IMG/VR virus record: IMGVR_UViG_3300020463_000014
Location: 1 to 64,000 of that record
DNA from: a virus
Lineage: Duplodnaviria > Caudoviricetes
Direction: 5' to 3' (one strand)
Length of the DNA stretch: 64,000 bases
In this document: piece by piece, positions 27,301-45,883 of the stretch
Layout of the letters: the number at the start of each line of letters is the position of its first letter
Position numbering within the stretch: the first letter of the stretch is position 1
Made by a program: the position numbers and the translations under genes
The notes under the pieces: model-generated
What the model was told of the DNA's origin: nothing
Seen by the model: the letters and a program-made list of their open reading frames with translations, nothing else
Database searches by the model: none

Positions 27301-30300
27301 TTAAAACTACTAGAAGTTCCAGAAGTACTATCAGTCTCAACATTAACAAATTTAATAGCTAATCCGCTACCTGGGCCACCTGCAGTAGCCATCGAACTGG
27401 ATGGTGCAAGTTTATGACCACCGAGTGGAGTTACTGTTAAATTATTGTAGGGAGTATTTGCTGTTACACTTCCATTTCCACTAGTGGCGTCAATATTAAT
27501 AGTAAATCCATCGGGAAATGTAGAAACTGGTGTTGTAACTTGTGTATGTGTAACAATAACAGTCGGGGCTGTGCCTTTAATAAAGTCTTTGATATTCACA
27601 TCACCAATATAAAGTGTAGCACCACTATCAATATTTACATCACCATGAATGTCAAGAGTATAATTTGGATTAAATCCAGAAGCATATTTTGCAGTATTAT
27701 TATGAGGTCTCTTAGCAGTTTTACCAATCATAATATTGGTATTATTTAAACCTTTATTTACATAATTACTATCAATAATATTAGTACCAGAATCATTAAA
27801 GATCTCTGGCTTCATAATTACAATGCCATTAGTTAATCCAGTTGGAATGAATGTATTACCACCAATGAATATAGTCTTATTAGCAGTACCACCTACTACA
27901 GTTCCGCCATACTGCGCATTTGCTCCAGTTGTGTGTGAATCTTTCCAACCTGTACCAATTACAATATTATTAGCACTAGTATTATTAAGAAGACTATTAT
28001 CTTTACCAATTACATAATTATTATCTCCAGCGTTATCAAGTATATTACCTTCACCAATAATAATTGATTTATTAGCAGCCTTTGGAGCAGTATTAGATAA
28101 TCCAAATTTATTATCAATACCAAATGCATAAAGTTGAGTTCCAGTGTTGTTTGAATCTTGTAAATTACCTTCACCTAGGAACATGTTTTGATCTGTTATG
28201 ATTTCATTACTTTTACCAATCGCAATGGAATGATGACCCAAGTTGCCTGTTCGGCCAAGAGTCTGTTGACCTTTACTTACTCTTTGTCCAACTCTATTTT
28301 TATAACCAAGAGATACAGAAGCTCTTCCTTTGGCATAGGGTTGTTCACCCATTCCCATAGAAAAATAGCCTAAATCAGAATTTTGATGTTCACCTAAATC
28401 TATTTTACCAGCTCTTACTATAGCAGCTCTTGAGCTATATAAGAACATATTATTATATGTAAGACTTGCTGGCCCACCATCAGAATCAAATACTGCCGAA
28501 TCACCCGCATCATATAAAGTACTTTTTAGAATACCATCAACTTGAAAATCACCACGAACATCAAACTCAGTATTAGGATCTGTTTTTTGTACACCTATAT
28601 TTCTTGGCGCAGCTGTAAGAATAAATCTTCCATCATCTACAAATGGATTGCCGGCAATTGGAGCGCCACCTTCCGGATTGTTCTGAAAAATATTTCCGCC
28701 ATATATAATATTGCCGCCAACAAATAAGTTACCCGCACCGTCAATGGCATCAAACATATCAGATTCTCTACCAATTGATACGTTACCACCTTGAATAGCC
28801 ATAAGGTTATCATCTACAACAACACCCGGTATTGTTCTATTTGGATTACCTATGAGATCTGCACCAGCTCCATATATAGGAGTAGTAGTGACCATTTGAA
28901 AATTTATGCTTTTATTAGCAGTATTAGCAATGTGGCCATTCATACCAAATGCGTAAGAACTTTGTCCTGAGACTATATTTTCTCTACCAAATGCAAACGC
29001 ATCGCCGCCACCAACTTTATTATAAGAGCCAATTGCAAACGATAAAGCACCACCAACAGAATCTTCCACACCGAAAGCAAAACCAGCATTACTTTGAGCT
29101 GTGTTGTTTTGTCCAAGTAGAAAATTAAAATTGCCACCGGCCGATTTATTGCCAAGACCAATAAATACTTGTTCTTTACCACCATTTGATACAATATTGC
29201 TTTTACCTAAAATAAATGTATCATCACCCTTTGCAGCGTTTTCTGCACCAAGTAAAACATTTCTATCACCACCATCAGAATTGTTTGATCCAATACCAAC
29301 TGAATATATACCAGTTATTTTATTTTTGAAACCCATAGCAATAGAAGCAAGCCCGGCGGCTCGACTACTATCACCAGTTGCAAAGCTACTTTGACCAGAA
29401 GCTTTAACATTTAAACCAAAGGCTGCTGAAAAAAGACCTAACTCATCCCAAGCAAAATCCTTATGGTTTGTAAAGTATCCACCACGCGTTGATGCTTTTC
29501 CTGGAACAAACGAAAATCTAGATCCTTTAGCTGAATCAGCAAGAGCGCTTAGTGACGGATCGCCGTAATTAATTACAAGATCATGCGCCATAGAAATCTC
29601 GCCAGAGATAGCATCATTATAGTCTGCGCTTTGTGGAATTGATCCAACTCCTTGAAAGCCACCTTTTACCTGAAATGGCCCTCCATGAACTTCGAACCTA
29701 GATTTAGGTTTATCTGTACCAACTGCAATTCTACCAAATCCACCATATGGATAAGTTGCTTTAAAATCTCTTGGAACAAAAAATGCATCGTCTAGAGCGG
29801 TAGCAGTAAATAATCCACCACCTGTAAATGGTACACCATTTTGTAAGAGCTCGCCAGTAAAGTTAATACTACCATCTTTATGAACTTCAAATAAAGAACT
29901 ATCTTCAAGTGATATAGCTCTTATTAAAACTGAAACATCTGAATCGTTAGCGCTAACTCCATCACCTGGAAATCTTCTAAGATCTCTTCCACTATCTTTA
30001 TGTAAATCACTTTTAAAATAGTTAATAGGTAGAGTAGAAGTTAATGAATATTTACGCCCTGCAAATTCGGTAGAGTCACCATCAGTAGTTACGGTTAAAC
30101 CATAAAAGTCTCTGGCTTGAGAATCATTAGGATAAATTATTGAGTTTGGATCAATTGTTAACAATCCAGGTTTTGATTTGTATGAACCTACTTTAACTCC
30201 TGCAGCATCAACTACACCTGTATTCTTATCAACAACAAATCTATACCAGCCAGAATCTTGTATGATTTGTTCTGCAACCATAAGACCAAATCGAGTACCA

Positions 30301-31935: not shown

Positions 31936-31943
31936 TATTTATA
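31936..31943 (-). promoter_or_regulatory. T4-type late promoter upstream of the giant fibre gene
   Basis: Exact TATAAATA about 40 nt upstream of the ATG at 31895. Confidence 0.78.
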
Positions 31944-32757: not shown

Positions 32758-33288
32758 ATGGAACAGATCATTTCAAACTTAGAAAATGTCTTTACCGATC
32801 TCGATAAAAAATTCATCAAAGGGCAAATTGAATGGGCCTTAGGACGGAAAGTAGCTCTTAAAGAATGGCGGATGGATAACATCCTCGGACATCCTTATGG
32901 CGCAAAAGTAAACGAAGGTTACAAAAATTGGGGTAGAGATAGCTGGGGTTTCTACGAAGAAATGTTTCGGATTTGCGGTGGTAAAGGTCACTATAACACA
33001 ATCACTCAAAATAACAATGCAGGAATTACTCAGATATTTGAAAAGAACTGCAAAAAAACAATTGAAGCAAGAAATGCTAAAGTAGCTAAAAAGCTGGAAA
33101 AATTTGGCATTACAGAAGTTAAAGACTCAAATATTTCTAAAACCTCAGATGGTTTTCACGGAGTCTTTAATGTAGAAACAGACAAAGGAAACAAGCGGAT
33201 TGAAATCGATACAATCTTAGCTGGTGGATATAACATCCAATGTCTCCACCTTCGTACTTTAGTAAAAATGAAAAAAGGAGTTTTATAA
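32758..33288 (+). CDS. Phage hypothetical protein (AGGYNIQCLH.R motif)
   Basis: 176 aa, strong RBS and own promoter. The C-terminal TILAGGYNIQCLHLRTLV motif is recalled from phage hypothetical proteins; function unknown. Confidence 0.8.
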   Translation: MEQIISNLENVFTDLDKKFIKGQIEWALGRKVALKEWRMDNILGHPYGAKVNEGYKNWGRDSWGFYEEMFRICGGKGHYNTITQNNNAGITQIFEKNCKKTIEARNAKVAKKLEKFGITEVKDSNISKTSDGFHGVFNVETDKGNKRIEIDTILAGGYNIQCLHLRTLVKMKKGVL

Positions 33289-33533
33289 TGCAAGTCGTAA
33301 CAGTTAGATTTACAGGATCGATGGTTGAACCATCACATCACGATTGTCAAATCGTAGAAGGTTCTATGAATATGAGATATGATGTACGGAAAGATTCTTC
33401 CGCACTCGTATTATATGATGTACGAAAAGATGATATTAATCCGCCAGTATGTAAAATTATCTCTCCATTTGGTAAAGATAATACATTAGAAGCATTTTAT
33501 ATGAATGAACAATGGAATTGTAACTTAGATTAA
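33288..33533 (+). CDS. Hypothetical protein, 81 aa
   Basis: Start revised to ATG 33288 (AAAGGAG RBS; TAATG overlap with upstream stop); contains YDVRKD twice. Confidence 0.7.
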   Translation: MQVVTVRFTGSMVEPSHHDCQIVEGSMNMRYDVRKDSSALVLYDVRKDDINPPVCKIISPFGKDNTLEAFYMNEQWNCNLD

Positions 33534-33546
33534 AAAAGATAGTAAT

Positions 33547-33572
33547 AAAGAGCTCTTAGGAGCTCTTTTTTT
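33547..33572. terminator. Rho-independent terminator between convergent units
   Basis: Perfect 9-bp stem AAAGAGCTC-ttag-GAGCTCTTT followed by a T-run on plus; an A-rich flank on the other side suggests bidirectional use. Confidence 0.85.
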
Positions 33573-34131
33573 GTTTAATAAAAATATCGACTGGAACAGC
33601 CAGTCTGAGATTAGAATGATATGTTTTTACTAGATGATAAACATATCCTGGCATAATTATTACATCACCAGTTTTAGGTGCGTACTCAATAGGTTTAAAC
33701 ATTTCGGCGGTTTTACCAAAATAACCTCTATTGGCATTTGCTCTTGGATCATATGACACTAGTTCTCCACCTTTATCAATATCATCAGAAAGAACATAAA
33801 ATACTGCAGCAAATTGAGCTCCAGAATGATTATGAATATTCATTGAATATCCCTTTTGAGATCCTGTTAACCAAGAACTAAATTCGTAAGACATATCATT
33901 TAGGTCGATACTAAATACTTCTTTAAAAAATTCTGAATATTTTTCTATAGCCAAATCTTTTAACAATGGAATTTTATCTGTAAGTGAACCACTATCGTAT
34001 TCAGCCTGTGGTTTCATAATATTAGTACTAAGTAAAATTTCTTGAACTAATTCTTCACATTGGTCTAAAGTAATTTGAGTTTTGTATATTGGTGTGGACC
34101 AACACTGATTAATACCCGATTTCAACATCAT
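33556..34131 (-). CDS. Fe(II)/2OG-dependent oxygenase (TIGR02466-like)
   Basis: HNH.....AAVFYV, GGEL...DPR, P..GD.IIMPGY.YH.V and terminal R motif. Confidence 0.85.
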   Translation of the reverse strand: MMLKSGINQCWSTPIYKTQITLDQCEELVQEILLSTNIMKPQAEYDSGSLTDKIPLLKDLAIEKYSEFFKEVFSIDLNDMSYEFSSWLTGSQKGYSMNIHNHSGAQFAAVFYVLSDDIDKGGELVSYDPRANANRGYFGKTAEMFKPIEYAPKTGDVIIMPGYVYHLVKTYHSNLRLAVPVDIFIKQKKSS

Positions 34132-34513
34132 AATATCCTTTTATGTCACGAACCATACCATGAATTACCATCAATGGCCAATCTATATTGTTAAGTATAC
34201 TATCGTATATTTCCTTACTATTTTCGTATGTTTTAAAATATGGATCATTACCGGCTAAAAGCATTGGTTCATTTAACAAATCATAAAAATCTTCGTTAAA
34301 ATCTCTACTAATCCAATAAGCATAACATATTGCTACAACATAACTCTTGGCTGGATATAACCACTCATCTACTTTCTCATTAAAGTGTCGAATAGCATTT
34401 TTAATAATGACCTCTTGATTATCGTCAAAAACTATTTCTACTTTATTCAAATCATCTGTATGATTTTTATTTAATCTATGATAAACTTCTTGTTTAACTT
34501 GCCATTCTTTCAT
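34109..34513 (-). CDS. Hypothetical protein in the radical SAM cassette
   Basis: 134-aa ORF overlapping both neighbours; no recognised motif. Confidence 0.7.
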   Translation of the reverse strand: MKEWQVKQEVYHRLNKNHTDDLNKVEIVFDDNQEVIIKNAIRHFNEKVDEWLYPAKSYVVAICYAYWISRDFNEDFYDLLNEPMLLAGNDPYFKTYENSKEIYDSILNNIDWPLMVIHGMVRDIKGYYDVEIGY

Positions 34514-35402
34514 GATACCAATCCAATAATCCTCTATATCCGTTACAGCTATTATTTAAATCTTTGACATATCGATAATGCTCTGTTAAGCAGTTTCCAA
34601 AATACTTACATGAGGCGCATATAGGACTTATCATTTCTTCTTTTTCTTTGTTTGTCCAATCAATGTATTGTTTCCAAGAATCCAATTCAAGAAAGAATTC
34701 TTTATCCTCTTCATCAAATTCCAAGACACCAAATTTGCCAGAAGGAGTGATGTATATATGATCATCCGAAAATGCATTGTATCTTCCTTTCACTGATTCT
34801 ATAATTCTATCTTCATTTACAAATTCAAACTTCATAGTGTCTTTTAACTTAAGCCACTTTATAACAAAATCTTCAAAGTCTTTGTGGGTCACGTTATGTG
34901 CATTTGCTTGATTTATTGAATATGGTTTAATCTCAACAGATGTAATTGACGAGCACATATTCAACATATTAATCATTTCAGATACATCTTTTTCTAGCAC
35001 CTTTGGAGAAGCTAAAATCAAAACTGCAATAGGTACTGTACTCATTAACATATTATTAAATACAAGTTCAGACTTTTCTCTTGCTTCAAAATCATATGAG
35101 ACAGAAAGATATACATCATCATCAAAAAAGCCTGGATGCATCATAGAATAATTAGTATTGATGCTAATTTCACCTGAATAATATTTTCTTATAACATCTT
35201 TAATACCATAAAAATATGACTTTTTCATTGCACCAACTTCACCACCATATAAGTCAATATGTTCTATATCTGGCACTTGAGATAGCAACTCATCTAGTTT
35301 ATCAAATGAAATTTGTTTCTGATCACCAAGTTGCTTAGTAGATAGGTAGCAAAAATCACATCTAAAATTACAAAAATATGAAGGATTGATCGATACAATC
35401 AT
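34494..35402 (-). CDS. Radical SAM protein with C-terminal Cys cluster (SPASM/twitch-like)
   Basis: CNFRCDFC, LYGGEV, YITPSG, C-terminal CASCKYFGNC...C. Confidence 0.9.
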   Translation of the reverse strand: MIVSINPSYFCNFRCDFCYLSTKQLGDQKQISFDKLDELLSQVPDIEHIDLYGGEVGAMKKSYFYGIKDVIRKYYSGEISINTNYSMMHPGFFDDDVYLSVSYDFEAREKSELVFNNMLMSTVPIAVLILASPKVLEKDVSEMINMLNMCSSITSVEIKPYSINQANAHNVTHKDFEDFVIKWLKLKDTMKFEFVNEDRIIESVKGRYNAFSDDHIYITPSGKFGVLEFDEEDKEFFLELDSWKQYIDWTNKEKEEMISPICASCKYFGNCLTEHYRYVKDLNNSCNGYRGLLDWYHERMAS

Positions 35403-36013
35403 TACCTAGATGGAAAGGAAATATTCATTACTACTGCAAGTCTATCTTCTTCACCATAATAAGGAGTTACTTCATGCCATACATGTGCCGGAACAATAAT
35501 AATTGTATTTTTTTCAGTCTCAATAGACATTTTAGATTTAGGTCTTGTTTTTATAACCTGGTTAAATGCTGGGTCATGAAAAATTAATTTGCCTCCATCT
35601 TTATCATTATCTACACAGTCTAAATAATAAACTGCAACCATCGAAGCACCACTATGACAATGCAAACCTTTATAATCACCATTTCTCATAAAGGGTAATC
35701 TTCCGGTGGTCTGTTCCATACGTTCTAAAATTTCAGCATGTGTAATTGATTCATCATATTCATTAGCTAGTTTTAAAAATGATTTCGCAAAAAAATCATA
35801 TAAATTTTTTATTTCATTATAATTTTTAATATTATCATCGGTAAAAAGCGGAATGTGTACTCCATCATCTCCACCATCTTGATATGAAAGACCGGCCATA
35901 GCTAAATGATTTCTAAATATTGCTTGGCATACTGAATTAAGAGTACTACTTTCTTCTTCATTAATATTATGTAACTCATGTAACATTTTTATTGGAAAAA
36001 TAGTTTTTATCAT
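35402..36013 (-). CDS. Fe(II)/2OG-dependent oxygenase (TIGR02466-like)
   Basis: HCHSGASMVAVYY, GGKLIFHDP, P..VWHEV....DRLAVVMN. Confidence 0.85.
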   Translation of the reverse strand: MIKTIFPIKMLHELHNINEEESSTLNSVCQAIFRNHLAMAGLSYQDGGDDGVHIPLFTDDNIKNYNEIKNLYDFFAKSFLKLANEYDESITHAEILERMEQTTGRLPFMRNGDYKGLHCHSGASMVAVYYLDCVDNDKDGGKLIFHDPAFNQVIKTRPKSKMSIETEKNTIIIVPAHVWHEVTPYYGEEDRLAVVMNISFPSR

Positions 36014-37044
36014 GCGTATTCCCTCTCATACGGCGTCAATTGTCTATCGATGCTATTTATACTGATTATATCAGTTGCTAAAGTCTTCATATGTTTACAA
36101 TGATCTTCTACCATATTATGCTGTTTTAAATCTTTAATAGTTTTTTTACATCCATTACAAATTTCAAACATTGGACAAGTATAACACGCATTTTTTAAAC
36201 TCATTAAACTTAAATCTGTTGCAAGAGGTGTTGAAAACCCACCACTCATTTCATAATCAAAATCAATAGCCTTATCTAAATCATCACCAAATGCACCACA
36301 TGAATAGTAGTCACCTTCAGGTTGAAGTGTTCGAATGCCAGAATCACATGTTCTTGTCTGTGGACATATAGTAGATTCTCCTCTTAATCGTACCATCATC
36401 TGTTGAGTGTTATGTTCCCAATCGCTTAATCCAGCTTTCCATATTTCAACATAACGTTCATATATTTTTGATAATTGATATGGAGCAGACTGAGAACCTG
36501 ATGCCATGGCATAATTTACTTTACAGACTACATCCATTTTTTTTGCAAGTTCAACTGTCTTAATATGAGTATCTTCATTCTCTTCAACAATCACTGCTAT
36601 GAATGATGGTCTATATCCAACATGTTCTAGCATCGCATCTGAACACTTCCAAAAATCTTCTTCTGTAAACTCACTATAATCACCTTTTAATCTTCCTCCA
36701 CCATATTGAAATGATGTAGCTACACCAATTCGAGGATGGTTAAAAAGTTCTTTCCATTTCATTGGTTTCATAAGAAATGGATATAAATTTGTTGTAAGTG
36801 ATATTGTTGCCGGCAGATCATACTTATCAAGATACTCTATAATTTTCCAATAGTAATTTGGTTTCATCATTAATGGATCGCCACCATTAACAATAATTGT
36901 TTGAGTATCTGGAAAACGTTTTAAAAACTTAAATATCTTATTTAAATCAAGAGTAGCAGTATTATCTTCAAACGTAATTTTAGATGATGAACAAAATGAA
37001 CATTTAAAATTACACAATTCTGTTGGTTTGACAATTAGGTCCAT
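36010..37044 (-). CDS. Radical SAM/SPASM protein
   Basis: KPTELCNFKCSFC, NGGDPL, C.....C...GDYYSC, CYTCPMFEICNGC...C. Confidence 0.92.
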   Translation of the reverse strand: MDLIVKPTELCNFKCSFCSSSKITFEDNTATLDLNKIFKFLKRFPDTQTIIVNGGDPLMMKPNYYWKIIEYLDKYDLPATISLTTNLYPFLMKPMKWKELFNHPRIGVATSFQYGGGRLKGDYSEFTEEDFWKCSDAMLEHVGYRPSFIAVIVEENEDTHIKTVELAKKMDVVCKVNYAMASGSQSAPYQLSKIYERYVEIWKAGLSDWEHNTQQMMVRLRGESTICPQTRTCDSGIRTLQPEGDYYSCGAFGDDLDKAIDFDYEMSGGFSTPLATDLSLMSLKNACYTCPMFEICNGCKKTIKDLKQHNMVEDHCKHMKTLATDIISINSIDRQLTPYEREYA

Positions 37045-37580
37045 GGCGAATTATTAACTTTAAACCCAAAATTCATAGTGATTCTATGCATATCTGGATC
37101 TCTGAAATGTTCAACTCTATGTTCAAACTGTTTATCTTGGCTTCCTACTACTACATCGTATTTTTGAGGTAAATGAAAGGCTGTGATTCTATTATTCTGT
37201 GATATATTTCTAAACATAATTTCACCACCAGCGTCTTTATTCATATCAGTAAAATATAAAAGAAACATTATATTTGCACCTTCACAAAAATCATTATGCC
37301 AATTACACGAAGTTTGTTCAGTGCCATTCCAACAGTGATAATAAATCAAATCTTTTTTTTCTGAATATGGTCTTAAATACTGATTAAAAAGATAATCAGC
37401 AGTCATTAGCATTTTCTTTCGCATACCCAATATATAATAATTTAAAGGGAATCGATAATCTTTTCTATTACCAATACCTCTAAGCCATTTTATATTAGGA
37501 ATAGTATCTTCTAAATATTGAAACGCTTGAACGTTATTTTCTGTGTAAAATCCATCATCCATTTTCCAACCATTTTTCAC
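37035..37580 (-). CDS. Fe(II)/2OG-dependent oxygenase (prolyl-hydroxylase-like fold)
   Basis: WHND (HxD), LLYF...GGEI.F, FEHRV, RITMNF. Start may be GTG 37580 or ATG 37562. Confidence 0.8.
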   Translation of the reverse strand: MKNGWKMDDGFYTENNVQAFQYLEDTIPNIKWLRGIGNRKDYRFPLNYYILGMRKKMLMTADYLFNQYLRPYSEKKDLIYYHCWNGTEQTSCNWHNDFCEGANIMFLLYFTDMNKDAGGEIMFRNISQNNRITAFHLPQKYDVVVGSQDKQFEHRVEHFRDPDMHRITMNFGFKVNNSPWT

Positions 37581-38722
37581 AGCATTTTTACCTTTTGTCT
37601 AAATCCATATGATAGATCATCTTCACCATCGCGTTTTGGTTTAAATCCTTTTGTTTTTTTAACGTAGTTAAACGTTTCTTTAAAAACACATTCTTCCATA
37701 TCGTTATGATCACCTGGCATATCAGCTTTTACAAAGCATGTGAATGGACAGTTTTCATAATATTCACACTCAAAACAATTATATTTTTTTAAAAACTTTT
37801 CTACCATCTCTCCTGTTTCAAAGGGTGTTTCACCAGTTTTTTTATCTCGCTGATATGCTACACCACAACATCCACCGGGTGATGAACCATCAGGCTGAAT
37901 AGTTATTGAATTACCTCTTGTACACATCATTGCACCAGTTTGATTCAATGGATCATGAAACGCATCCATGTTTTCACAATCAGGATAGTTATCCACTAAG
38001 TATTTGTTAAACGCTAATAGCTCACTATCTTTAGGAATTAATTTTGCATCTGCTTTAATTAATGGTGATGGCATATAAGCATCAAAATCAACTGGAAAGT
38101 TTTTATACAAATAATCAAAAGTGCTTTTATCGTTACTCTTTATAATTGTTTGTATATTTTGGCTAGTAGTAACAATTGAAACGTTTCTAATATAATCTTT
38201 AAAAGTCTCAACATTTTCTAAGAATATTTCTAGTTGACCTTTATTAAATCTACCTCTTGGATCATAAGAAGTTGAAAGCTTTATATCATGCTTATTACAA
38301 AAGTCCATAACTTTATCTGAATTTTTTTTATCAAACATAAAATTAGTAAGATAATTAAAATAAATTCTTTTGTTGCCGATGTTAATCTTGGATCTAACTA
38401 AATTCATAAATTCTTCATATACATCTAAAAAGCCTTTTTCAATCCATAGATCTTCAAATAATTCTCCACCTAATAGATGTAATTTATAGTCTTTTGATCT
38501 TGGCGAATTGTTAATAAATTTAGCAACAGTATCGCTTTTTGCTAAAATTTCTTCTCGAGTAGCTCCAACCATTGAGTTATGATCTTGCGGACAGAACACA
38601 CATTTTAAATTACAATGTTCAAAAAATATTATAACAAGCTCACTTGATCGAGTAATCTTGCTTCCTAAAATTTTGTATATATCAAAATCAAGTGGAGCTG
38701 GATTAATAGGTGCTACAGACAT
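37577..38722 (-). CDS. Radical SAM protein with SPASM-like C-terminus
   Basis: CNLKCVFC, LLGGELF, C.....I.PDG....CC, CFECEYYENCPFTC...C. Confidence 0.9.
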   Translation of the reverse strand: MSVAPINPAPLDFDIYKILGSKITRSSELVIIFFEHCNLKCVFCPQDHNSMVGATREEILAKSDTVAKFINNSPRSKDYKLHLLGGELFEDLWIEKGFLDVYEEFMNLVRSKINIGNKRIYFNYLTNFMFDKKNSDKVMDFCNKHDIKLSTSYDPRGRFNKGQLEIFLENVETFKDYIRNVSIVTTSQNIQTIIKSNDKSTFDYLYKNFPVDFDAYMPSPLIKADAKLIPKDSELLAFNKYLVDNYPDCENMDAFHDPLNQTGAMMCTRGNSITIQPDGSSPGGCCGVAYQRDKKTGETPFETGEMVEKFLKKYNCFECEYYENCPFTCFVKADMPGDHNDMEECVFKETFNYVKKTKGFKPKRDGEDDLSYGFRQKVKML

Positions 38723-40383
38723 TCTTTACTTACCTCTGACATAATTATATGTCTATTTTTTTCTATAAATTTATTTATAGTATTTGCTCTAAACTCTTGA
38801 TTTAAAACTTTAATGCTTTTTGGTTGAGAATTTGGATTAAATATATCTCTTATTTCAGAATGTATATCATCCCATCTATCTAATTTACTTATAACTTCAT
38901 ATGCTTTTTTAGTAAAGACTGACGGTGATAGACTATTTTCAAGCATAGGATAAAAGTGCTGCAGTAAATAATTTCCAGCACTATTCATAAACCACATTTC
39001 ATGCATTTCTTCAGTTGTAAACGAAAAGCATGATGATATTGTTTTAAAATACGATTTTTTATTTTTATACAAATTATTCCAACTATCTATCCCTTGTTCA
39101 TCTGCAATATCAGTGTAAACTTCAACGGTTCGAATATCATATTTAATTTTATATTCCTGAGAATTAAGCGCTGAATCTGGAAGAAACATATAATCATGTC
39201 TGTAAGAACCAAACGATTTAAAATTCCAGATATATTCCATTTCATTATAAAAGTCATCTATTGTAGAACCTGGCATTGCAAGGATCATTTCTAAATTAGG
39301 TATTGGAAACCCGTGCTTTGAACATTGCTCATTAATGTGTTTACTTAATTCTAATTTATCTTCTGTATTTAAATCAACTCTTTCAGCTATTTTCATTGCA
39401 ATGTCAGAACTGCTTTGAATAGACACTGATGGAACTATCGATATATTGGCCATCTCACTCCACATATCTTTTCCATTTTTCATATTTGGAGAAGTATAAT
39501 TTGTTCCAACGATTTCAAAATACTTATCAATTAATTTTTTTCTTCTATTTAAATCCTTAGATTTCATGGTAGAAATATCAGTTAAATTAAAACCATTTGT
39601 CCAAGCGTATTCGAATATTTCAAAGTCTCTTTCAAAAAAGGCTCCAAAGTTTGCATCATTTAAATAAGCAGATCTATAACCGGCTTTTAGCATAGCATTG
39701 ATATCACGTTTCACTATGCCCAAGGATTTCTTATAAATCTTTGTATTAATACCTCCACCCCATTCGCAGAACACACACTTATAAGGACAACCTCTTGTCG
39801 TCTCTAAAACAATAAACGGTTCCATTTTATTATTACGAGCGTATTTAAGTAATTTTGTAAGATATTCTAAATGATCTTCGTATACTGAATAATCTTCTTT
39901 TGACAAATCATGTATTAATTTTACATCAGATCTTAATTCCCATGGAATACTTGTTGGATCTATTCTGTTTTCAATAAACTGATCGATAAGCTCAGCCATA
40001 AATGGCTCACCTGGTTTAGTAGGTCTACAAATTAAATCGTACTGAGGACGTGATGTTAATAGTTCTGGTTCATTGGTTCCAATATGTGGACCACCTAAAA
40101 CTAGTATTTTTTCTGGATATTTATTTTTAATTTTATTAGAAATTTCATCACATATCATATAGTTCCAAGTATAAGAAGAAAACATAATTATATCTGCTTC
40201 GATTATATCATCTATTACTTCATCATAAGATTTATAGCTATTCCATTTATATGGTGATTCTAACCACTTTACTTTTTTACTATATTTGCCAAAACGAGAA
40301 TAGTAACTTTGCATTAATAAAAATGTAAAGTTATTTGCTAGTGACCAGTCAGCGTGAGGAGGATTAATAAATGCTATAATCAT
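38713..40383 (-). CDS. B12-binding-domain radical SAM protein (class B methyltransferase-like)
   Basis: N-terminal DII.FSSYTWN...KIK..YP....VLGGPH cobalamin-binding-type domain; ETTRGCPYKCVFCEWG; DANFG; SIQS. Confidence 0.88.
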   Translation of the reverse strand: MIIAFINPPHADWSLANNFTFLLMQSYYSRFGKYSKKVKWLESPYKWNSYKSYDEVIDDIIEADIIMFSSYTWNYMICDEISNKIKNKYPEKILVLGGPHIGTNEPELLTSRPQYDLICRPTKPGEPFMAELIDQFIENRIDPTSIPWELRSDVKLIHDLSKEDYSVYEDHLEYLTKLLKYARNNKMEPFIVLETTRGCPYKCVFCEWGGGINTKIYKKSLGIVKRDINAMLKAGYRSAYLNDANFGAFFERDFEIFEYAWTNGFNLTDISTMKSKDLNRRKKLIDKYFEIVGTNYTSPNMKNGKDMWSEMANISIVPSVSIQSSSDIAMKIAERVDLNTEDKLELSKHINEQCSKHGFPIPNLEMILAMPGSTIDDFYNEMEYIWNFKSFGSYRHDYMFLPDSALNSQEYKIKYDIRTVEVYTDIADEQGIDSWNNLYKNKKSYFKTISSCFSFTTEEMHEMWFMNSAGNYLLQHFYPMLENSLSPSVFTKKAYEVISKLDRWDDIHSEIRDIFNPNSQPKSIKVLNQEFRANTINKFIEKNRHIIMSEVSKECL

Positions 40384-40416
40384 ATTTCATTCTATACATT
40401 ACAAATTAAAAAATAT

Positions 40417-41547
40417 TTAAACTGTTACATATTTAGCAATAGTTGTTTTATCAGAAACAGAATTAGCATCCAGCAGTGAATGAATTAAATAATGATTTAC
40501 AGTTTCAAGTTCTAATGCAAAGAATTTTTCAGGTTCTTTATCATCTGATGATTCAATTAAAATAAGCTTATCTAATAGTTCATCTGTTAATTCAGTATTA
40601 ATTGCTGGTAAGAATTCTAATATGCTATCATCTCTTAAAGTAAAATCAGACCATTGACTTTCTATAATAGCTACAAACTCTTTAATAGTATTAAGATCTG
40701 AATCAGAAATATTTTCGAATATTACATTATCACTACTAGAAGCGCCACTTAGATATTTTATAGACCACATATCGTCTTTAATAAACAGTTGAGCAAATTT
40801 AGAAGTATCTGTAAAAATGTCATTAATATTATTTAATGTGTAAGTTTTGTCTAAATTTAATTTATCAGCAAAAGATTTAGTTAAGAAATGTTGGAAAAAT
40901 ATTTCCTTTAATTCGTAAAGATATTGTTCAAACACTTTTTTCAGCAAAGGTCTGACTACGCCTTTTAACTCTGCTTTTGAAGATTTGTCATTAAGATAAT
41001 TTGCTAGTAGATGTTCAACACTTATTGTGCTTTTATATTTTGCCATAAATGCTTTTTTCTTGGCAGCAGAAGGAGCTTTAACACTATCATAAATGGTATT
41101 GAAATTTTCTACTTTTAAAATTTCACCAGATCCTAATTTTGCATTATTACTTGAAAACCTGCCTCTAAAAAATGTATTAAATTTAAAAGCATGGGCTTTT
41201 ACTAATGATTCTACTGAATCAACTTTCGGAGTTTTTAAAATAAATTTATACCAAGTAGACATAATAAATTGAAATGCTGCACTATCACAATAAACAACGA
41301 TTCTTTTATTTGTAGAATCACATTTGGCAGCTAATTCATCAAAAAGAGTTGTAGCATCTTTAAACGTTTTATCTTTTCCTAGAATATCATTCCATTCAAG
41401 TCCATATGCAATGAGTTGACCAGATAATATTTTTTGAAGATCTTCTAAAAGATTAAAACCGTTACTTTGCGATACAACAATACGATCAAAATTTGGATCG
41501 ATGATATTATCTGTTGTTACATAAATCTTTTTAAACAGATGTATCAT
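40417..41547 (-). CDS. Hypothetical protein in the radical SAM cassette
   Basis: 376-aa ORF with ATGA overlap to the upstream gene; no confident motif. Confidence 0.75.
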   Translation of the reverse strand: MIHLFKKIYVTTDNIIDPNFDRIVVSQSNGFNLLEDLQKILSGQLIAYGLEWNDILGKDKTFKDATTLFDELAAKCDSTNKRIVVYCDSAAFQFIMSTWYKFILKTPKVDSVESLVKAHAFKFNTFFRGRFSSNNAKLGSGEILKVENFNTIYDSVKAPSAAKKKAFMAKYKSTISVEHLLANYLNDKSSKAELKGVVRPLLKKVFEQYLYELKEIFFQHFLTKSFADKLNLDKTYTLNNINDIFTDTSKFAQLFIKDDMWSIKYLSGASSSDNVIFENISDSDLNTIKEFVAIIESQWSDFTLRDDSILEFLPAINTELTDELLDKLILIESSDDKEPEKFFALELETVNHYLIHSLLDANSVSDKTTIAKYVTV

Positions 41548-42191
41548 AACTGTTCTCCTGTGGCGATAGCGCTTGTTATTAAAAACATTGGGTTATTAAC
41601 ATTCGCCCAATAACTAAATAGATTATTTCCTTTAAACATATACTCATTAAAGTATGATTTATAATATGTTTTATGATGTTCAATTACATTGGCATAAAAT
41701 AGATAAAAGCTTTCATATTTAAGTAAATTTACAAAATTTATTCCAGTTAGATCTTTTGTGTCATCTTCTGGAAATGATTTAACATAGTCTTTTAATTCAT
41801 CGCATTCAACTGTGTACAAATTATAAAGCGAAAGTGAATCTAATTTCTTAGCCCAAGTAGTAAGTATTTCAACGTTATCATCAATAAAATCTTTTTCTAT
41901 TAATTCACTAATACCTTTCATCTGTAATAATAAACTAATTACTCTTTCTTCAAGGATAGGAATACTTATAATAAAATTAGCTAAAAGATATTCTCTAGTA
42001 AGATCATCAAAATCTTTTTGATCAGTAAAACCAATATTACATGGCAATTCCAGATTACTGAGATATGTTAATAGCTTTGTTCCCTGCAATTGTGAATTTT
42101 CATAATCAACTATATAAAAAGTTTGATCATCTTCAAAATACAATTTCAAATCTTCAATACTAAATGGTGCAGTAACATCAATAACTTTCAT
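41544..42191 (-). CDS. Hypothetical acidic protein coupled to the putative precursor gene
   Basis: Start revised to 42191 (MKVIDV; ATGA overlap with the precursor stop; GAGGA RBS inside the RGRR codons). Confidence 0.75.
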   Translation of the reverse strand: MKVIDVTAPFSIEDLKLYFEDDQTFYIVDYENSQLQGTKLLTYLSNLELPCNIGFTDQKDFDDLTREYLLANFIISIPILEERVISLLLQMKGISELIEKDFIDDNVEILTTWAKKLDSLSLYNLYTVECDELKDYVKSFPEDDTKDLTGINFVNLLKYESFYLFYANVIEHHKTYYKSYFNEYMFKGNNLFSYWANVNNPMFLITSAIATGEQL

Positions 42192-42751
42192 CTTCTTCCT
42201 CTCGAGCCATGGCAACTGCTATGACAACTTGCATGACAAATATTAATATTTACAGTAACGGTATTGGAAACTAAATTATTAAAACGTGTCTGTAAGTCTG
42301 TAAATTTAGCTTCAAGACCAGAAGCACTAATTTGAGTACCAGCAGTTAAAGTAACTCCAGCTGCAGATAACGTTTGTGCATAACTACTGTTTAAATAAGC
42401 TTTTGCTGTTTGATTAAAAATTTGTCCAGGATTAGGATATGTTCCTGTATTACCACCAGGACCTGTTACTGTTCGAATTGCATTTAAATTTCTAATTTGA
42501 CTATACGCAGCGGTTTCATTTTCAATTGCAGTATTGATAACAGAAGCAGTGATTGGATTTTGATTTATATCAGCTCCAGTAATTCCAATGCTTCTACCAG
42601 CAGTTGTTCCACCAAAATATGATGTAGCAAATCCACTAAACGGAACTGAATTGGTACCCCAAACAATACCAGAGTTTGCACTTGCCGGCGCAAAATCCGC
42701 AAATCTATCTATTATATTCTGTGCGTTAATTGGACTTGTTAATGTAGCCAT
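42188..42751 (-). CDS. Putative radical-SAM substrate: virion-like protein with C-terminal (Cys-His-Xaa-Ser)3-RGRR tail
   Basis: 187 aa; Thr/Ala/Gly/Asn-rich body containing no Cys or His until the terminal CHASCHSSCHGSRGRR; GAGGA RBS; dedicated late promoter. Confidence 0.75.
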   Translation of the reverse strand: MATLTSPINAQNIIDRFADFAPASANSGIVWGTNSVPFSGFATSYFGGTTAGRSIGITGADINQNPITASVINTAIENETAAYSQIRNLNAIRTVTGPGGNTGTYPNPGQIFNQTAKAYLNSSYAQTLSAAGVTLTAGTQISASGLEAKFTDLQTRFNNLVSNTVTVNINICHASCHSSCHGSRGRR

Positions 42752-42777
42752 TTCATTCCTCTTTTGTTATATACGTG

Positions 42778-42785
42778 TATTTATA
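42778..42785 (-). promoter_or_regulatory. T4-type late promoter driving the putative precursor and downstream enzymes
   Basis: Exact TATAAATA 27 nt upstream of ATG 42751, overlapping the upstream stop codon. Confidence 0.8.
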
Positions 42786-43800
42786 CATGTTTTGCGAGTT
42801 CCATCATTAAACTTTTTGGTGCACCACAAATATCTCCATCCCATCCTAATTGATGACAATCACCTCCACAAAATCTAGATACAGGGCAAGATAAACAATT
42901 AGGATTACGCATTTTTTCTTCTAATATAGTACGAATTCTTTTTGGACTTTTTAACAATGTATCAATTGAATCATCTAAACTTCCAAAAGCTTGTTCAGGC
43001 GCACTATTTGGGCAGCCTGCAATAGTTCCATCTCCATTTATGGTAAATAGTTTTTGTTCACAATCTCTACAAAATGTTCCACACGTAGTCATAGTCTTTT
43101 CAAATTTGGCATATACATTTTCTAAAAAGTCATTTTCAAACCAATCCCTTGCTCCGTGCTTTTCACTTTGCATGTGCATTTTTAAAAAATATTCATCAAG
43201 TTCTTTATTGCTTGGAAATATTTCTGATGCTTCTCGGGCACTACCATTATTAGTTAGTCTTTCCAGTGAAACTTCTTGTACACCAAGTCGCCGGCACCAT
43301 CTTAATAATACTATAGGATCTTTTGCAAGTGTATCTTTTGTAAGACTAATAAACAAACGAATAGTAACACCGTTTGCTAAAAGTGTTTTAACATTTTTAT
43401 GCCAAAGATTATATTGGTTTTTATTTTCAAATCGAATCTTACGATCCCACGATGTGCCAAGTCTATTTCCAAGAGGACCTTTAATAAAATCCATATGTTG
43501 ATCTTTTAATTTGAAAACTAAATTAGTTGTAGCACCCCACGACATTTGATTCCATAAACCATCACATGCATCATATACCTTTCGCATTTGGCCAACCGGT
43601 ACAAGAAACGGTTCACCACCATGAAATTCCATATGTATAGAATCTTGTGTTGCAGGTTTTTCTTTTCTAAATCTATGAATCCAGTCAACTAGCTTATCAG
43701 TATTCCAATAAATCTTTTGACCGCTTCTTCCACTGGTAAAACAGTGTGCACAATTAAGCTGACATGTTTCTGTTGTTTTGAGATACATCAGCCAGTTCAT
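42781..43800 (-). CDS. Radical SAM/SPASM peptide-maturase-like protein
   Basis: KTTETCQLNCAHC, FHGGEPFL, CRDC....TINGDG.IAGCPN, CLSCPVSRFCGGDC...C (full SPASM-type Cys pattern). Confidence 0.93.
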   Translation of the reverse strand: MNWLMYLKTTETCQLNCAHCFTSGRSGQKIYWNTDKLVDWIHRFRKEKPATQDSIHMEFHGGEPFLVPVGQMRKVYDACDGLWNQMSWGATTNLVFKLKDQHMDFIKGPLGNRLGTSWDRKIRFENKNQYNLWHKNVKTLLANGVTIRLFISLTKDTLAKDPIVLLRWCRRLGVQEVSLERLTNNGSAREASEIFPSNKELDEYFLKMHMQSEKHGARDWFENDFLENVYAKFEKTMTTCGTFCRDCEQKLFTINGDGTIAGCPNSAPEQAFGSLDDSIDTLLKSPKRIRTILEEKMRNPNCLSCPVSRFCGGDCHQLGWDGDICGAPKSLMMELAKHV

Positions 43801-44281
43801 TATTAATTTTATCCTCTGTATAATTTTCTAAACCAAAGCTTAACGTCAATGCTTCATCTTTATTTAATGCTTGATGAGGTGTATAAGCTGGTATATGTAT
43901 ATATTCTCCTTGGATAATAGTCACTGGCTTATTATCAATTATTAAAGATTTAGATCCTTCACAGCAATATATAACAACATCATCTGGATCAGTATGCATA
44001 TCGAAAGAATAAGATCCAGCCGCTGCAAAAAATAAATGACATGTTACATGCTGTTCATGTTTCCAATCAGTTTTTATTTTCCAACAATATTCATATATTG
44101 TTGAATTAAAGTTTTCCATACGTTCGATTTTTATAGAATGGTTTTGTTTTTGCACTTTGCAAAAATCACTGAAACTAGTAATTAGCTGTTCACGACCCTG
44201 TTCATCTATAGCATAAACCATATTTTGTTCATACATATGACTCGCAGTAAGTGCAGATATGAGTTGAGATTTATTAATCAT
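43754..44281 (-). CDS. JmjC/cupin-4 (ROX/YcfD-like) oxygenase
   Basis: SFDMHTDPDDV....CEGSK and G.YIHIPAYTPHQA...LTLSFG resemble the HxD...H cupin of ribosomal oxygenases. Confidence 0.8.
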   Translation of the reverse strand: MINKSQLISALTASHMYEQNMVYAIDEQGREQLITSFSDFCKVQKQNHSIKIERMENFNSTIYEYCWKIKTDWKHEQHVTCHLFFAAAGSYSFDMHTDPDDVVIYCCEGSKSLIIDNKPVTIIQGEYIHIPAYTPHQALNKDEALTLSFGLENYTEDKINNELADVSQNNRNMSA

Positions 44282-44287
44282 TATTTA

Positions 44288-44316
44288 ATTATATACTATT
44301 TTTAATCAAATGTAAA
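44288..44316 (-). promoter_or_regulatory. Sigma70-type promoter, probably giving a leaderless mRNA
   Basis: Minus strand TTTACA-N17-TATAAT; the A of ATG 44281 lies 7 nt after the -10 box and there is no RBS. Confidence 0.7.
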
Positions 44317-44323
44317 TAGTTAT

Positions 44324-45883
44324 TTACACTTTAAGGATACATTCTATCAATTTTTCTTCATCTACAGTAGACGATTCTAAAGCTACACCTACCATCATAG
44401 CTCCATTAAATTCTTTACTTGCTCGGCCATTATGGTGTGTATATACTGGATCACCTTTATGAACTCCACCAATAACCCTTACTGGAACTCTTCCCTTAAG
44501 ACCTAAAGCTTGACCAGGAGCGTCTGCATTCATTAAATAAGCAGGTTGAGCTGAAATTACGCCGACTGGAATTCCGCTTGATGTGCAAGGAGTAGTTTCT
44601 TCAGTTTTATTAAATGACGCCATCATTACTGTTCCAACTGGATGCTCTTCACTTGTAGTATATTTTTCTGCAAGGTCAGCATAATTTGCAGTTTGAGCAT
44701 TACCAGCAACTGTACCGGCAGATAATGTTTGTGTTGATGGATTATACATTAAATGCCCATTATCAGTATCAATATAAGGTCTTTGATAACCTGTACCATT
44801 ATTATCGCTAAATAATACTTGGTAATTTACATCGTCATTTTTTTCATCAACTTTTACAAAATCGGCCTCGCCTCCAGAAACTGTACAAGCACCAGTATTT
44901 GCCATTGTAACATGACCAGATAATGCTGCAGTAGTAAAACCTGAGCCATTACCAATTAGAATTTGAGTGTCTGCTACTATAATATCTGAAGGATCTGATG
45001 CTGAAGAACTATTTCCAACTTTTACTGAATTTGCTGGCATATTAGCAAGCTTATCATTAGTCACAGCATCATCAGTTATTTGACCTGTTATTACTTGTCC
45101 TGCCTGAATACCTCCAGATGCTTGGCGACCAATTACAGTATTAGTTCCTGCTTGTACAGAGCCAATATCACCAGCAGCTGATCTACCAATAACTGAATGA
45201 TCTGGTATTGCTAAATCTCCTGGATCACCACTAGTACCTGCCTGGCGAGTTTTTATTGTATATCCTGCCATATTAGCAAGCTTAGCATTAGTTACTTGAT
45301 CATCTGATATCATATCAGTTTGAATTTGCACTTCTTCAACTGTGCCCGCTGTTGTTTTGCCAAGAACTCTATTTGCAGTTACAATGTCTTGCATTTTATC
45401 ATAGGTCACAACATCAGGCTGAATTGTGACCACGCCGGCGTTTGTCATAAGAACATCTTGAGATAAAGCGGTAGATGTAAAACCAGTTCCATTACCAATT
45501 AAAATTTGTTCGTTAGTAACTGCCTTATTTGATGATGCTCCAGTAGTTCCTGCATCTCTTACTTTAACAGTGTTTGCTGGCATATCTTCTAATTTAAGAC
45601 CAGATGCTTCTTGAGTTAAACCGTGACCACCTGCTACTGAAAATGTTCCACTTGAATCTCCAGTAAGGTTTCCACCAACGCTAGTCTTTAAAATTCCATT
45701 TCCTGCATTATAGTTTCTTCGCACTGCTTTACTAAAATTTAAGGCTGTTACTATACTTGAATCATGGCCAGCATAGTCACTACTAAGATTATCTAGATCA
45801 CCGATCTGAGCAGCAATAGTATTAGATTTTACTCTAAAAGTGTTAATTGTATCACTTAAATTTATAACTGTCTGTCTAGCCAT
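44324..45883 (-). CDS. Tail fibre-like protein with C-terminal chaperone/peptidase-like domain
   Basis: Internal repeats (VT..KLANM.AN.VKV; ILIGNG.GFT..ALS); C-terminal YADLAEKY...GVIS..PAYLMN...L.GRVPVRV.G motif typical of fibre C-termini. Confidence 0.75.
   Translation of the reverse strand: MARQTVINLSDTINTFRVKSNTIAAQIGDLDNLSSDYAGHDSSIVTALNFSKAVRRNYNAGNGILKTSVGGNLTGDSSGTFSVAGGHGLTQEASGLKLEDMPANTVKVRDAGTTGASSNKAVTNEQILIGNGTGFTSTALSQDVLMTNAGVVTIQPDVVTYDKMQDIVTANRVLGKTTAGTVEEVQIQTDMISDDQVTNAKLANMAGYTIKTRQAGTSGDPGDLAIPDHSVIGRSAAGDIGSVQAGTNTVIGRQASGGIQAGQVITGQITDDAVTNDKLANMPANSVKVGNSSSASDPSDIIVADTQILIGNGSGFTTAALSGHVTMANTGACTVSGGEADFVKVDEKNDDVNYQVLFSDNNGTGYQRPYIDTDNGHLMYNPSTQTLSAGTVAGNAQTANYADLAEKYTTSEEHPVGTVMMASFNKTEETTPCTSSGIPVGVISAQPAYLMNADAPGQALGLKGRVPVRVIGGVHKGDPVYTHHNGRASKEFNGAMMVGVALESSTVDEEKLIECILKV

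Follow-up and report, generated by a model that had tools for sequence, protein, structure and literature searches.

What is a virus doing with five radical S-adenosylmethionine (SAM) proteins in the middle of its tail genes? We address this question for positions 1 to 64,000 of the IMG/VR virus record IMGVR_UViG_3300020463_000014 (Duplodnaviria; Caudoviricetes), a 64-kb stretch, hereafter the window, of a 76-kb viral contig with an estimated completeness of 37% and a G+C content of ~33%. The cassette in question consists of 13 co-directional minus-strand open reading frames (ORFs) that run from 44281 to 33556 and are numbered g01 to g13 in transcription order, and its third gene encodes a 187-residue protein, g03, with a short repeat at its C-terminus. 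The answer that we favour, with somewhat more confidence than doubt, is cross-linking or oxidation of the g03 tail by these enzymes, g03 being a late protein associated with the fibre module. The gene content, the constancy of the tail, its co-occurrence with the enzymes, the synteny with fibre genes and the predicted tail disorder are observed; the tail as substrate, the bonds made in it and a location in the virion are what we infer. A first-pass annotation of this DNA had described 13 co-directional, mostly overlapping genes at 33556-44281, which the ORF coordinates bear out, with 10 of the 12 junctions overlapping by 1-47 nucleotides and gaps present only between g02 and g03 (29 nucleotides) and between g05 and g06 (33 nucleotides). 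The genes of the cassette and the tail of g03 are as follows.

43754..44281, minus strand: g01, small cupin metalloprotein of 175 residues with an H96-T-D motif, paired with g02 (Cupin_2 32.4 bits; phrog_8014)
42781..43800, minus strand: g02, radical SAM/SPASM enzyme of 339 residues (TIGR04085 35.7 bits, cut-off 27; phrog_1802 E value 1e-57)
42188..42751, minus strand: g03, presumed substrate of 187 residues, with a predicted compact alpha/beta body (residues 1-172) and a predicted disordered C-terminal tail, ending ICHASCHSSCHGSRGRR
42191..42238, minus strand: tail of g03, CHASCHSSCHGSRGRR, its final 16 residues; single DNA-pattern match in the window
41544..42215, minus strand: g04, protein of no recognised family, 223 residues (215 residues if the start is the ATG at 42191, giving an ATGA overlap; phrog_20767 E 4e-54)
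40417..41547, minus strand: g05, protein of 376 residues with no family in any library searched
38713..40383, minus strand: g06, B12-binding-type radical SAM protein of 556 residues, accessory
37577..38722, minus strand: g07, radical SAM protein of 381 residues with a SPASM-like Cys tail (Fer4_12 22.6 bits; phrog_1802 E 1e-30)
37035..37580, minus strand: g08, probable iron/2-oxoglutarate (Fe/2OG) oxygenase of 181 residues, with W94, H95, D97, H154 and R166 invariant in its family
36010..37044, minus strand: g09, radical SAM protein of 344 residues with a SPASM-type tail (Radical_SAM 36.6 bits; phrog_1802 E 4e-56)
35402..36013, minus strand: g10, 2OG-Fe(II) oxygenase of 203 residues (2OG-FeII_Oxy_5, PF13759, 40.0 bits, cut-off 27; phrog_81)
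34494..35402, minus strand: g11, radical SAM protein of 302 residues with a short twitch-like Cys tail (Radical_SAM 29.8 bits; Cys 262, 265, 271 and 286)
34109..34513, minus strand: g12, protein of no recognised family, 134 residues, which travels with g11 and g02, in Bdellovibrionota too
33556..34131, minus strand: g13, 2OG-Fe(II) oxygenase of 191 residues (2OG-FeII_Oxy_5, PF13759, 40.9 bits, cut-off 27)

The association of these enzymes with a tailed protein is evident in two collections of viral loci. Scanning IMG/VR with a degenerate DNA pattern of the tail gave at least 119 stretches (motif-selected loci), and among the matches listed at least 144 ORFs carried the motif in 114 of the 119 loci, in every case (144/144) directly at the stop codon. 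A motif-blind set of 80 further viral loci was found with a g04 profile and taken with 5-kb flanks, by which distal genes were cut off, and 76 of these loci were evaluable. Homologous clusters without a CHxS-tailed gene, the observation that the first-pass annotation had said would count against its proposal, did not turn up in this set: the tailed gene lies directly upstream of g04 in 76 of the 76. The g02 gene is directly upstream of the tail gene in 71 of them and ~1-2 kb further upstream in the other five. Gene counts among the 80 loci were 80 for g04, 78 for g03, 77 for g07, 76 for g02, 67 for g01, 66 for g05, 63 for the fibre-like gene 'up' that is described below, 50 for g08, 46 for g06 and 40 for g09. 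The initial description had placed the B12-type radical SAM protein and all of the oxygenases in the cassette; the wider comparison shows that g06, which is present in 12 of 116 motif-selected loci in addition to the 46 of 80 motif-blind ones, and several oxygenases are accessory and not core. Where short tandem-pair tailed genes stand apart from the enzymes, 8 of the 10 contigs still encode a g02 homologue, the other two being fragments that are 15-22% complete. Both arrangements occur on a single 151-kb IMG/VR contig (loci L056 and L069), which has a 205-residue tailed gene, a tandem pair of ~130-residue tailed genes and two g02 homologues that are 84% and 45% identical to the g02 of the window.

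Isolated phages carry the same combination. Tblastn searches with g02 and with g04 returned the same 15 records (12 isolated jumbo phages), the isolated carriers being Atu_ph07, Phosso, RSL2, RSF1, FLC phages, SURPRISE13, RsoM3USA and pPa_SNUABM_DT01, with T4-like and phiKZ-related lineages among them. In the three isolated phages examined, g02 and g04 homologues flank a gene whose product ends in CHxSCHxSCHxSRxRR; among isolated phages a megablast of the cassette DNA and a tblastn with g03 gave no match. Overall, the enzymes and the tailed protein make up one conserved unit.

The tail itself is the most constant part of g03. A DNA pattern of three CHxS units has one match in the window versus none in 100 shuffles, and this test, together with the ORF translation, confirms the 187-residue protein with a CHxS-repeat C-terminus that had been reported initially. 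In a 42-sequence alignment the C, the H and the R-x-R-R are invariant and body columns average 36% identity, giving the tail the form hydrophobic-(C-H-x-[S/N/A])x3-R-x-R-R. Among the 76 motif-blind tails, 51 are exactly (CHxS)3-RxRR and 25 have Asn or Ala replacing at least one Ser. In the repeat described at first, it is thus the Cys and His residues, their spacing of four and the final R-x-R-R that are unchanging; its Ser, although favoured, is not invariant. We rejected a simple-sequence or chance origin of the repeat, as the same peptide occurs in hundreds of divergent genes and always ends at the stop codon. The fixed C-terminal position and the invariant C, H and R-x-R-R, set against a variable body, indicate that the tail is under selection.

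With regard to the body of g03, an AlphaFold2 model built on the 42-sequence alignment has a mean predicted local distance difference test score (pLDDT) of 84.2 and a predicted template-modelling (TM) score of 0.76, and the last 12-15 residues are disordered (pLDDT <50). Stripped of its tail, the body of g03 still has matches in 53 of 112 distinct full-length members, which makes it a genuine domain family. Searching 5.8 billion proteins with a profile returned at least 862 clusters of g03 homologues, all unnamed and none with a Pfam domain. Foldseek found nothing for g03 in the PDB at E<=1e-3, and the best match in a VIA wide search had a Z of 3.8 (root-mean-square deviation 5.2, 141 aligned). 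For g04, modelled at a pLDDT of 90.7, Foldseek found no match and the best VIA Z of 4.8 covers residues 7-64 only; for both proteins a weak or missing fold match is not proof of a new fold. A BFVD search with g03 returned only orthologues and three long proteins of one uncultured myovirus. These three (A0A8S5USJ8, A0A8S5USJ7 and A0A8S5USV2; 504-660 residues) have a weak likeness to the g03 body fold (E 9e-4 to 3e-3, TM 0.44-0.51) and may be fused or expanded g03 relatives. Motif-bearing ORFs fall into size classes of ~170-210 residues, ~260 residues and tandem pairs of ~125-145 residues, and three longer proteins, P0127 (587 residues), P0128 (609 residues) and P0125 (483 residues), end in the same tail. 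Two of the three have bodies without detectable g03 similarity and one has a Gly_rich_2 domain. With its presence on such unrelated bodies of 483-609 residues, the tail seems to behave as a portable module.

All five radical SAM proteins contain CxxxCxxC, at residue 13 in g02, 199 in g06, 37 in g07, 11 in g09 and 11 in g11. Cys patterns and profile searches uphold the original count of five, four with SPASM/twitch-type Cys tails and one of B12 type. They are not recent duplicates, as BLASTP detects likeness only between g09 and g11, over 86 residues. The best-defined member is g02, which combines CxxxCxxC with the C-terminal auxiliary-cluster motif of 7-8 Cys that marks the SPASM superfamily and scores above the TIGR04085 cut-off; its family has 11 invariant Cys, eight of them C-terminal, and a complete SPASM motif. 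The families that g02 matches best over its full length all modify peptides or proteins (DynA, anSME, PapB, CbpB, DarE and QhpD), and among its closest solved relatives are anSME and 5wgg, a sactionine synthase entry; a single-sequence profile search of the PDB with g02 gave no match. The g09 protein also has a full-length but weak match to DynA (E 5e-14), and its TIGR04085 score of 21.7 bits is below the cut-off of 27. For g06 the architecture fits a B12-binding-like N-terminus followed by a radical SAM core, but the scores stay below the thresholds, with 28.6 bits for B12-binding (cut-off 32.1), 26.1 bits for Radical_SAM (cut-off 29.5) and 80 bits (E 1e-22; cut-off 700) for the KedN5 B12-radical SAM subfamily. 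A defence-system reading was rejected, since the PADLOC likeness to viperins and PDC-M51A covers only the generic radical SAM core.

The oxygenases had been described as one JmjC protein and three other 2OG oxygenases, of which g10 and g13 are firm, but g08 is only probable and g01 is a generic cupin. Specifically, g01 scores 30.5 bits against JmjC_2 over the whole protein (cut-off 22) with no single stretch passing, and its nearest solved relatives are quercetin-dioxygenase-type cupins, so the 'JmjC' label is not firm. The g08 protein has no Pfam match at E<=0.01, the best being a weak 2OG-FeII_Oxy_4 match at E 0.074, and hhalign gives it a probability of 1.7% against g10 and 16% against g13, with the motifs in register and weak statistics. 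Three proteins that had been left unassigned, g04, g05 and g12, are indeed without a Pfam or NCBIfam family. ESM Atlas look-ups with g04 and g05 gave no usable match (the Atlas sequence of g04 begins at residue 9), and PDB sequence-profile searches with the g03, g04 and g05 families returned nothing below E 0.1. A predicted g03-g04 complex scored 0.05, which speaks neither for nor against binding. Family-library searches of the 13 genes found no protease or exporter family, in agreement with the first impression of the cassette.

The cassette had been taken to be phage-encoded; it is not confined to phages, as it is also found in chromosomes of Bdellovibrionota. When one-genome-per-species bacterial and archaeal assemblies were scanned, the tail pattern was found in 27 stretches, 12 of which are from Bdellovibrionota. 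At 21 loci a total of 23 ORFs terminate in the tail; one additional match is internal and four are chance. Several matches outside Bdellovibrionota are on contigs of ~30-230 kb in metagenome bins with a phage-like gene order, and these contigs may represent phage DNA that ended up in bacterial bins. In Bdellovibrionota, three copies reside on contigs of 1.29 Mb, 382 kb and 299 kb, and the flanks on the 1.29-Mb contig are cellular (serine dehydratase, Mrp/NUBPL-type ATPase, lytic transglycosylase and class A penicillin-binding protein). In these bacteria the gene order is shuffled and the g03-g04 pair is kept, with g02, g07, g09, g11, g12, g01, g08 and sometimes g06 also present. Two of the three genomes (Halobacteriovoraceae) have a Peptidase_S74 ('chaperone of endosialidase') protein beside the cassette, at 51.9 and 48.9 bits (cut-off 22). 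Note that the Peptidase_S74 domain is a hallmark of trimeric fibres and spikes.

Several features are particular to single bacterial loci. Tails at two Bacteriovoracia loci (L137:846-1430 and L142:120-761) have four CHxS units instead of three. In one genome (G001, L152:8649-9800) a Mrp/NUBPL-type Fe-S P-loop NTPase lies ~2 kb from the cassette, and in another (G002, Halobacteriovoraceae; L153:12533-15344 and L153:15510-16658) a clostripain-family peptidase (Peptidase_C11), a transglutaminase-elicitor-like protein and an FHA protein are beside it. The clostripain family (Peptidase_C11) is Arg-specific, and a protease of an Arg-specific family near an R-x-R-R tail, in this one genome only, is suggestive.

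Upstream of the viral cassette are the fibre-like gene 'up', a gene for a 1757-residue phrog_358 protein, and T4-type baseplate wedge and hub genes. The features that bear on the relationship of g03 to this region are as follows.

44324..45883, minus strand: 'up', fibre-like protein of 519 residues (DUF5907 repeat 28.1 bits; phrog_22593 at residues 388-504)
44288..44316, minus strand: sigma-70-like promoter TTTACA-17-TATAAT just before g01, the top scan match (11 of 12 positions), a consensus match only
42778..42785, minus strand: TATAAATA, a T4-type late promoter word, 27 nucleotides before the g03 ATG and followed by a GAGGA-type ribosome-binding site

The C-terminal 135 residues of 'up' match the Peptidase_G2 intramolecular chaperone at E 2.8e-5 and 24.1 bits (cut-off 25), and apart from the start Met all of its invariant columns are at residues 399-486, in A-D-L-A-E...G...S..P..MN...G motifs; a profile search of the PDB with this C-terminus gave no match. 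'up' is the usual upstream neighbour of the cassette, being found there in 63 of the 80 motif-blind loci, and it abuts the tandem pair in eight loci (L021, L041, L044, L048, L053, L063, L071 and L115), in two of which (L048 and L063) the enzymes are at the same locus, several kb from 'up' and the tandem pair. Every one of the 14 TATAAATA copies found in the window lies on the coding (minus) strand, with 10 of them within ~70 nucleotides upstream of an ORF start, and the word also precedes ORFs of the baseplate wedge and the giant fibre, a 4508-residue ORF. Regarding isolated phages, the Atu_ph07 paper, in its accessible part, states that most of the 131 proteins in the virion proteome are encoded in clusters, one of them 'CDS 170-215'; gp170 of Atu_ph07 is the tailed protein, and the numbering of the paper agrees with that of the RefSeq record. 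The tailed protein is named in none of the papers on S13, FLC6, RP12/RP31 and pPa_SNUABM_DT01 (the RP31 supplementary proteome table apart). We link g03 to the fibre module because of the synteny with 'up', the S74 neighbours in bacteria, the Gly_rich_2 domain of one longer tailed protein, the TATAAATA before g03 and the Atu_ph07 cluster. Such a fibre link, which was part of the initial suggestion of a virion component, is backed by synteny in both phages and predators and, indirectly, by the Atu_ph07 hint.

The 4508-residue ORF lies downstream of the cassette (18369-31895, minus strand) and has long arrays of short DSAYI/DSDYIK-type repeats near both ends and its own upstream TATAAATA at 31936-31943. 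Atu_ph07 gp180 (13.3 kb) is similar in size but is on the other ('up'-ward) side of its cassette. A further feature marks the cassette end:

33547..33568, both strands: palindromic 9-bp hairpin (-12.2 kcal/mol, z -2.85) between convergent genes, terminator-like on both strands

This hairpin overlaps the last codons of g13 and is followed by an interrupted U tract. It had been called a strong terminator that closes the cassette; it is plausible as a terminator but, at these values, not an outstanding one. Two small plus-strand ORFs (176 and 97 residues; 32758-33533), neither of which has a family match, converge on the cassette end and share the hairpin.

How does the cassette relate to systems in which similar enzymes are understood? 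The nearest characterised analogue is the HXS antiphage system, yet every test of HXS membership failed. The available part of its description (Li et al., Nat Commun 2026, PMC13128918) has HxsA matured by the radical SAM proteins HxsB and HxsC, with HxsD. The likeness, on that account, is that several radical SAM enzymes mature a protein with short basic-rich His-x-Ser-type repeats, and that the HXS product remains a protein and acts at the envelope. In contrast, HXS is described there as bacterial and defensive, and HxsA as having five HxS repeats, a peptidoglycan-binding domain and N-terminal processing, whereas here three (rarely four) C-H-x-x units with an invariant Cys are at the extreme C-terminus of a different body and are accompanied by a cupin and 2OG oxygenases. 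No peptidoglycan-binding domain or HxsD was found in g03 or the cassette, and g03 matches no Pfam or NCBIfam domain. The best HxsB (TIGR03978) score is 34.8 bits, by g02 (cut-off 370), and the best HxsC (TIGR03977) score is 27.7 bits, by g09 (cut-off 267.9), with g11 at 15.3 bits.

Other comparisons involve single SPASM enzymes. The sulfatase motif is C-x-[P/A]-x-R, and in anSME/AtsB (PDB 4k36-4k39) a SPASM radical SAM enzyme modifies the Cys in a full-size protein; the last tail unit, C-H-x-[S/N/A]-R, shares the Cys-to-Arg spacing. Although anSME is among the best full-length NCBIfam matches of g02, only the N-terminal core (residues 11-84) aligns in the solved relatives, the TIGR03942 score is 42.6 bits (cut-off 349) and g03 has no sulfatase domain. 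In addition, only a minority of tails have Pro or Ala at position 3, the Arg context applies to just one of the three Cys, and there are four radical SAM enzymes here and not one. The sactipeptide/ranthipeptide maturases CteB (PDB 5wgg) and PapB are SPASM enzymes that join Cys sulfur to a nearby carbon, on substrates with a regular Cys spacing comparable to the period of four; PapB acts on C-x3-D repeats. They differ in that their substrates are short leader peptides, usually accompanied by proteases or exporters, and the PapB score is 41.3 bits (cut-off 340). Triceptides are reportedly three-residue cyclophanes made by radical SAM/SPASM enzymes on aromatic-x-x motifs, His included, and Ser and Asn are common as the third residue. 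Each tail unit holds such a His-x-[S/N/A], and the YhhB, AmcB, FxsB and GrrM families are among the weak matches, but these scores are far below the cut-offs and mostly cover the N-terminal core, and the invariant Cys is outside triceptide motifs. Finally, in quinohemoprotein amine dehydrogenase several Cys thioethers are introduced into the QhpC subunit by QhpD, also a SPASM radical SAM enzyme that modifies a protein subunit kept in a larger assembly. TIGR03906 gives a weak full-length match, but at 26.5 bits (cut-off 453), and QhpD has an enzyme context and not a virion or fibre one, with no repeat tail. As for canonical RiPPs (peptides that are made on ribosomes and modified after translation), the precursor here is a folded 187-residue protein and the 13 genes include no protease or transporter family.

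We take the tail to be the radical SAM substrate because of its strict co-occurrence with a SPASM enzyme, its disorder, and the maturases that are the best full-length matches of g02. In the mechanism that we propose, g03 would be made late as a folded ~170-residue protein with a flexible 16-residue C-terminal tail, and g02 (with the cupin g01), g07, g09 and g11 would abstract hydrogen atoms in the tail and install intramolecular cross-links on Cys and/or His. One candidate is Cys-to-carbon thioethers of the sactionine/ranthionine type, given that the period-4 Cys spacing of the tail resembles ranthipeptide repeats; others are His-to-C-beta cyclophanes of the triceptide type on His-x-[S/N/A], and conversion of Cys to formylglycine at the last unit. 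The Fe/2OG-type oxygenases would add hydroxyl groups and the B12-type g06, where present, methyl groups, with g04 and g05 acting as partners without a recognisable catalytic motif. The modified tail would stay attached to the body and not be released as a peptide, and the product, rigid, of unusual chemistry and possibly metal-binding, may serve alongside the adjacent fibre in the prey-attachment apparatus of a phage or a Bdellovibrio-like predator. A bolder version, which we regard as a long shot, is that phages and Bdellovibrio-like predators share a tethered RiPP-like 'warhead', either a metallophore-mimicking metal claw that docks on prey outer-membrane receptors or a reactive group (e.g. 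a formylglycine aldehyde) that locks the fibre to the envelope. If true, natural-product chemistry would be a general and so far unseen component of prey recognition.

Several observations weigh against modification of a fibre-linked tail. Modification of the tail has so far been observed nowhere, and without any modification its Cys and His residues, three of each, could coordinate a metal or an Fe-S cluster. The bond type cannot be read from homology, with every enzyme-maturase family match far below its curated cut-off, and the variable Ser position (25 of 76 tails) argues against chemistry that needs the Ser hydroxyl. On the side of the fibre link, only 34 of 64 evaluable loci have 'up' immediately next to g01, and it was not detected in RSL2-type phages. 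The 14 copies of TATAAATA in the window compare with 16.0 expected in shuffles, i.e. there is no enrichment, and the word also stands ahead of the enzyme genes g07 and g10. The presence of the Atu_ph07 tailed protein in the virion is a hint that depends on a cluster boundary. Lastly, the Bdellovibrionota homologues have no obvious signal peptide when the sequences are inspected by eye, which leaves a route to the surface unexplained.

Among other explanations, the main rival sees in the tail a metal or Fe-S site without modification, with g03 serving as a metallochaperone, an Fe-S carrier or an electron donor for phage radical SAM enzymes that act elsewhere. Apart from Arg the only invariant side chains are the three Cys and three His, which are classic metal ligands, five Fe-S enzymes adjoin g03, and one Halobacteriovoraceae genome has the Mrp/NUBPL-type NTPase ~2 kb from its cassette; there are also T4-like marine viral genomes in which genes for Fe-S assembly occur along with up to 12 radical SAM genes, according to the accessible part of PMC5332604. 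However, the g03 body has no ferredoxin, flavodoxin, IscU or A-type carrier match, the predicted tail is disordered and stands free of the fold, and the same tail on unrelated bodies of 483-609 residues suits a tag or substrate better than a cofactor site. Such a site would also leave R-x-R-R and the small or polar positions 3 and 4 unexplained, and no alternative substrate gene is conserved in the cassette, and we consider it unlikely. We give slightly more credence, though still little, to a matured g03 that is a host-directed or injected effector or counter-defence protein, with a cationic modified tail acting on DNA or the envelope like the HXS effector. The HXS radical SAM enzymes mature a His-x-Ser-repeat protein that binds DNA and blocks phage DNA entry (PMC13128918, available part), g03 likewise has His-x-[S/N/A] units and a basic end, and the Atu_ph07 virion hint, from the part of that paper at hand, would equally fit an ejected protein. 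Predatory bacteria, which inject no DNA, nevertheless have the same cassette in their chromosomes, the synteny is with fibre genes and not with head or internal-protein genes, and no Hxs family threshold is approached.

The remaining two alternatives change the product or the substrate. In a classical RiPP or peptide-derived cofactor pathway, the body of g03 would act as an extended leader from which the 16-residue tail is cut to yield an antibiotic, a signal, a metallophore or, in the manner of mycofactocin or PQQ, a redox cofactor. Mycofactocin-type precursors have a conserved C-terminal core and are found beside a SPASM enzyme, a layout that g03 matches, and the tail is constant on bodies of ~110-600 residues. 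A clostripain-family peptidase is near the cassette in one bacterial genome, but this is only one of the three bacterial loci examined, and the cassette of the window has no protease or transporter family. A body that is well folded and conserved (53 of 112 match without the tail; pLDDT 84), together with the late-promoter word and the fibre context of g03, also fits poorly with a leader, and we hold this pathway to be improbable. It is very improbable that the enzymes act on a non-protein substrate (nucleotides, DNA or lipid) with g03 as a mere structural neighbour. Their N-terminal cores do match viperin, MoaA and NrdG models weakly, and the available text of one phage paper speculates on DNA repair (PMC8541153), but those matches cover only the cluster-binding N-terminus, and the 76/76 co-occurrence and genome-level linkage are difficult to account for if the genes are unrelated. 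Enzymes with SPASM domains typically modify peptides and proteins.

Targeted full-text searches of the literature on radical SAM proteins in jumbo phages or virions, Bdellovibrio, RiPP tail fibres and phage triceptides found no description of such a system, in keeping with the opinion of the first-pass annotation that no characterised phage system is like it. Papers on isolated phages, as far as their available text goes, go no further than listing the genes for cupin, radical SAM and 2OG proteins or speculating about DNA repair (PMC8541153), and the term 'radical SAM' occurs 0 times in a comparative review of jumbo phages (PMC7824862).

Taken together, the cassette is a real and strongly conserved feature, and we read it as a form of protein maturation by radical SAM enzymes that is undescribed in the literature searched and that probably has as its target a late protein linked to the fibre in jumbo phages and Bdellovibrio-like predators. 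With cross-linking or oxidation of the g03 tail as the preferred explanation, the meaning of the cassette extends beyond this one virus. Maturation by radical SAM/SPASM enzymes is known for secreted peptides, cofactors, a few enzymes and, since 2026, one defence effector. If true, four or five enzymes devoted to one late fibre-linked protein would amount to natural-product-type chemistry on the particle and thus to a new layer of virion biology. It would also give a function to the unexplained radical SAM/cupin/2OG clusters that are listed in marine T4-like and soil jumbo phages, and would bring a new substrate class as well as several enzyme families whose chemistry is yet to be established. 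The presence of carriers among existing isolates, e.g. Atu_ph07 and pPa_SNUABM_DT01, makes the system testable, and the finding points to attachment machinery that is common to phages and predatory bacteria.

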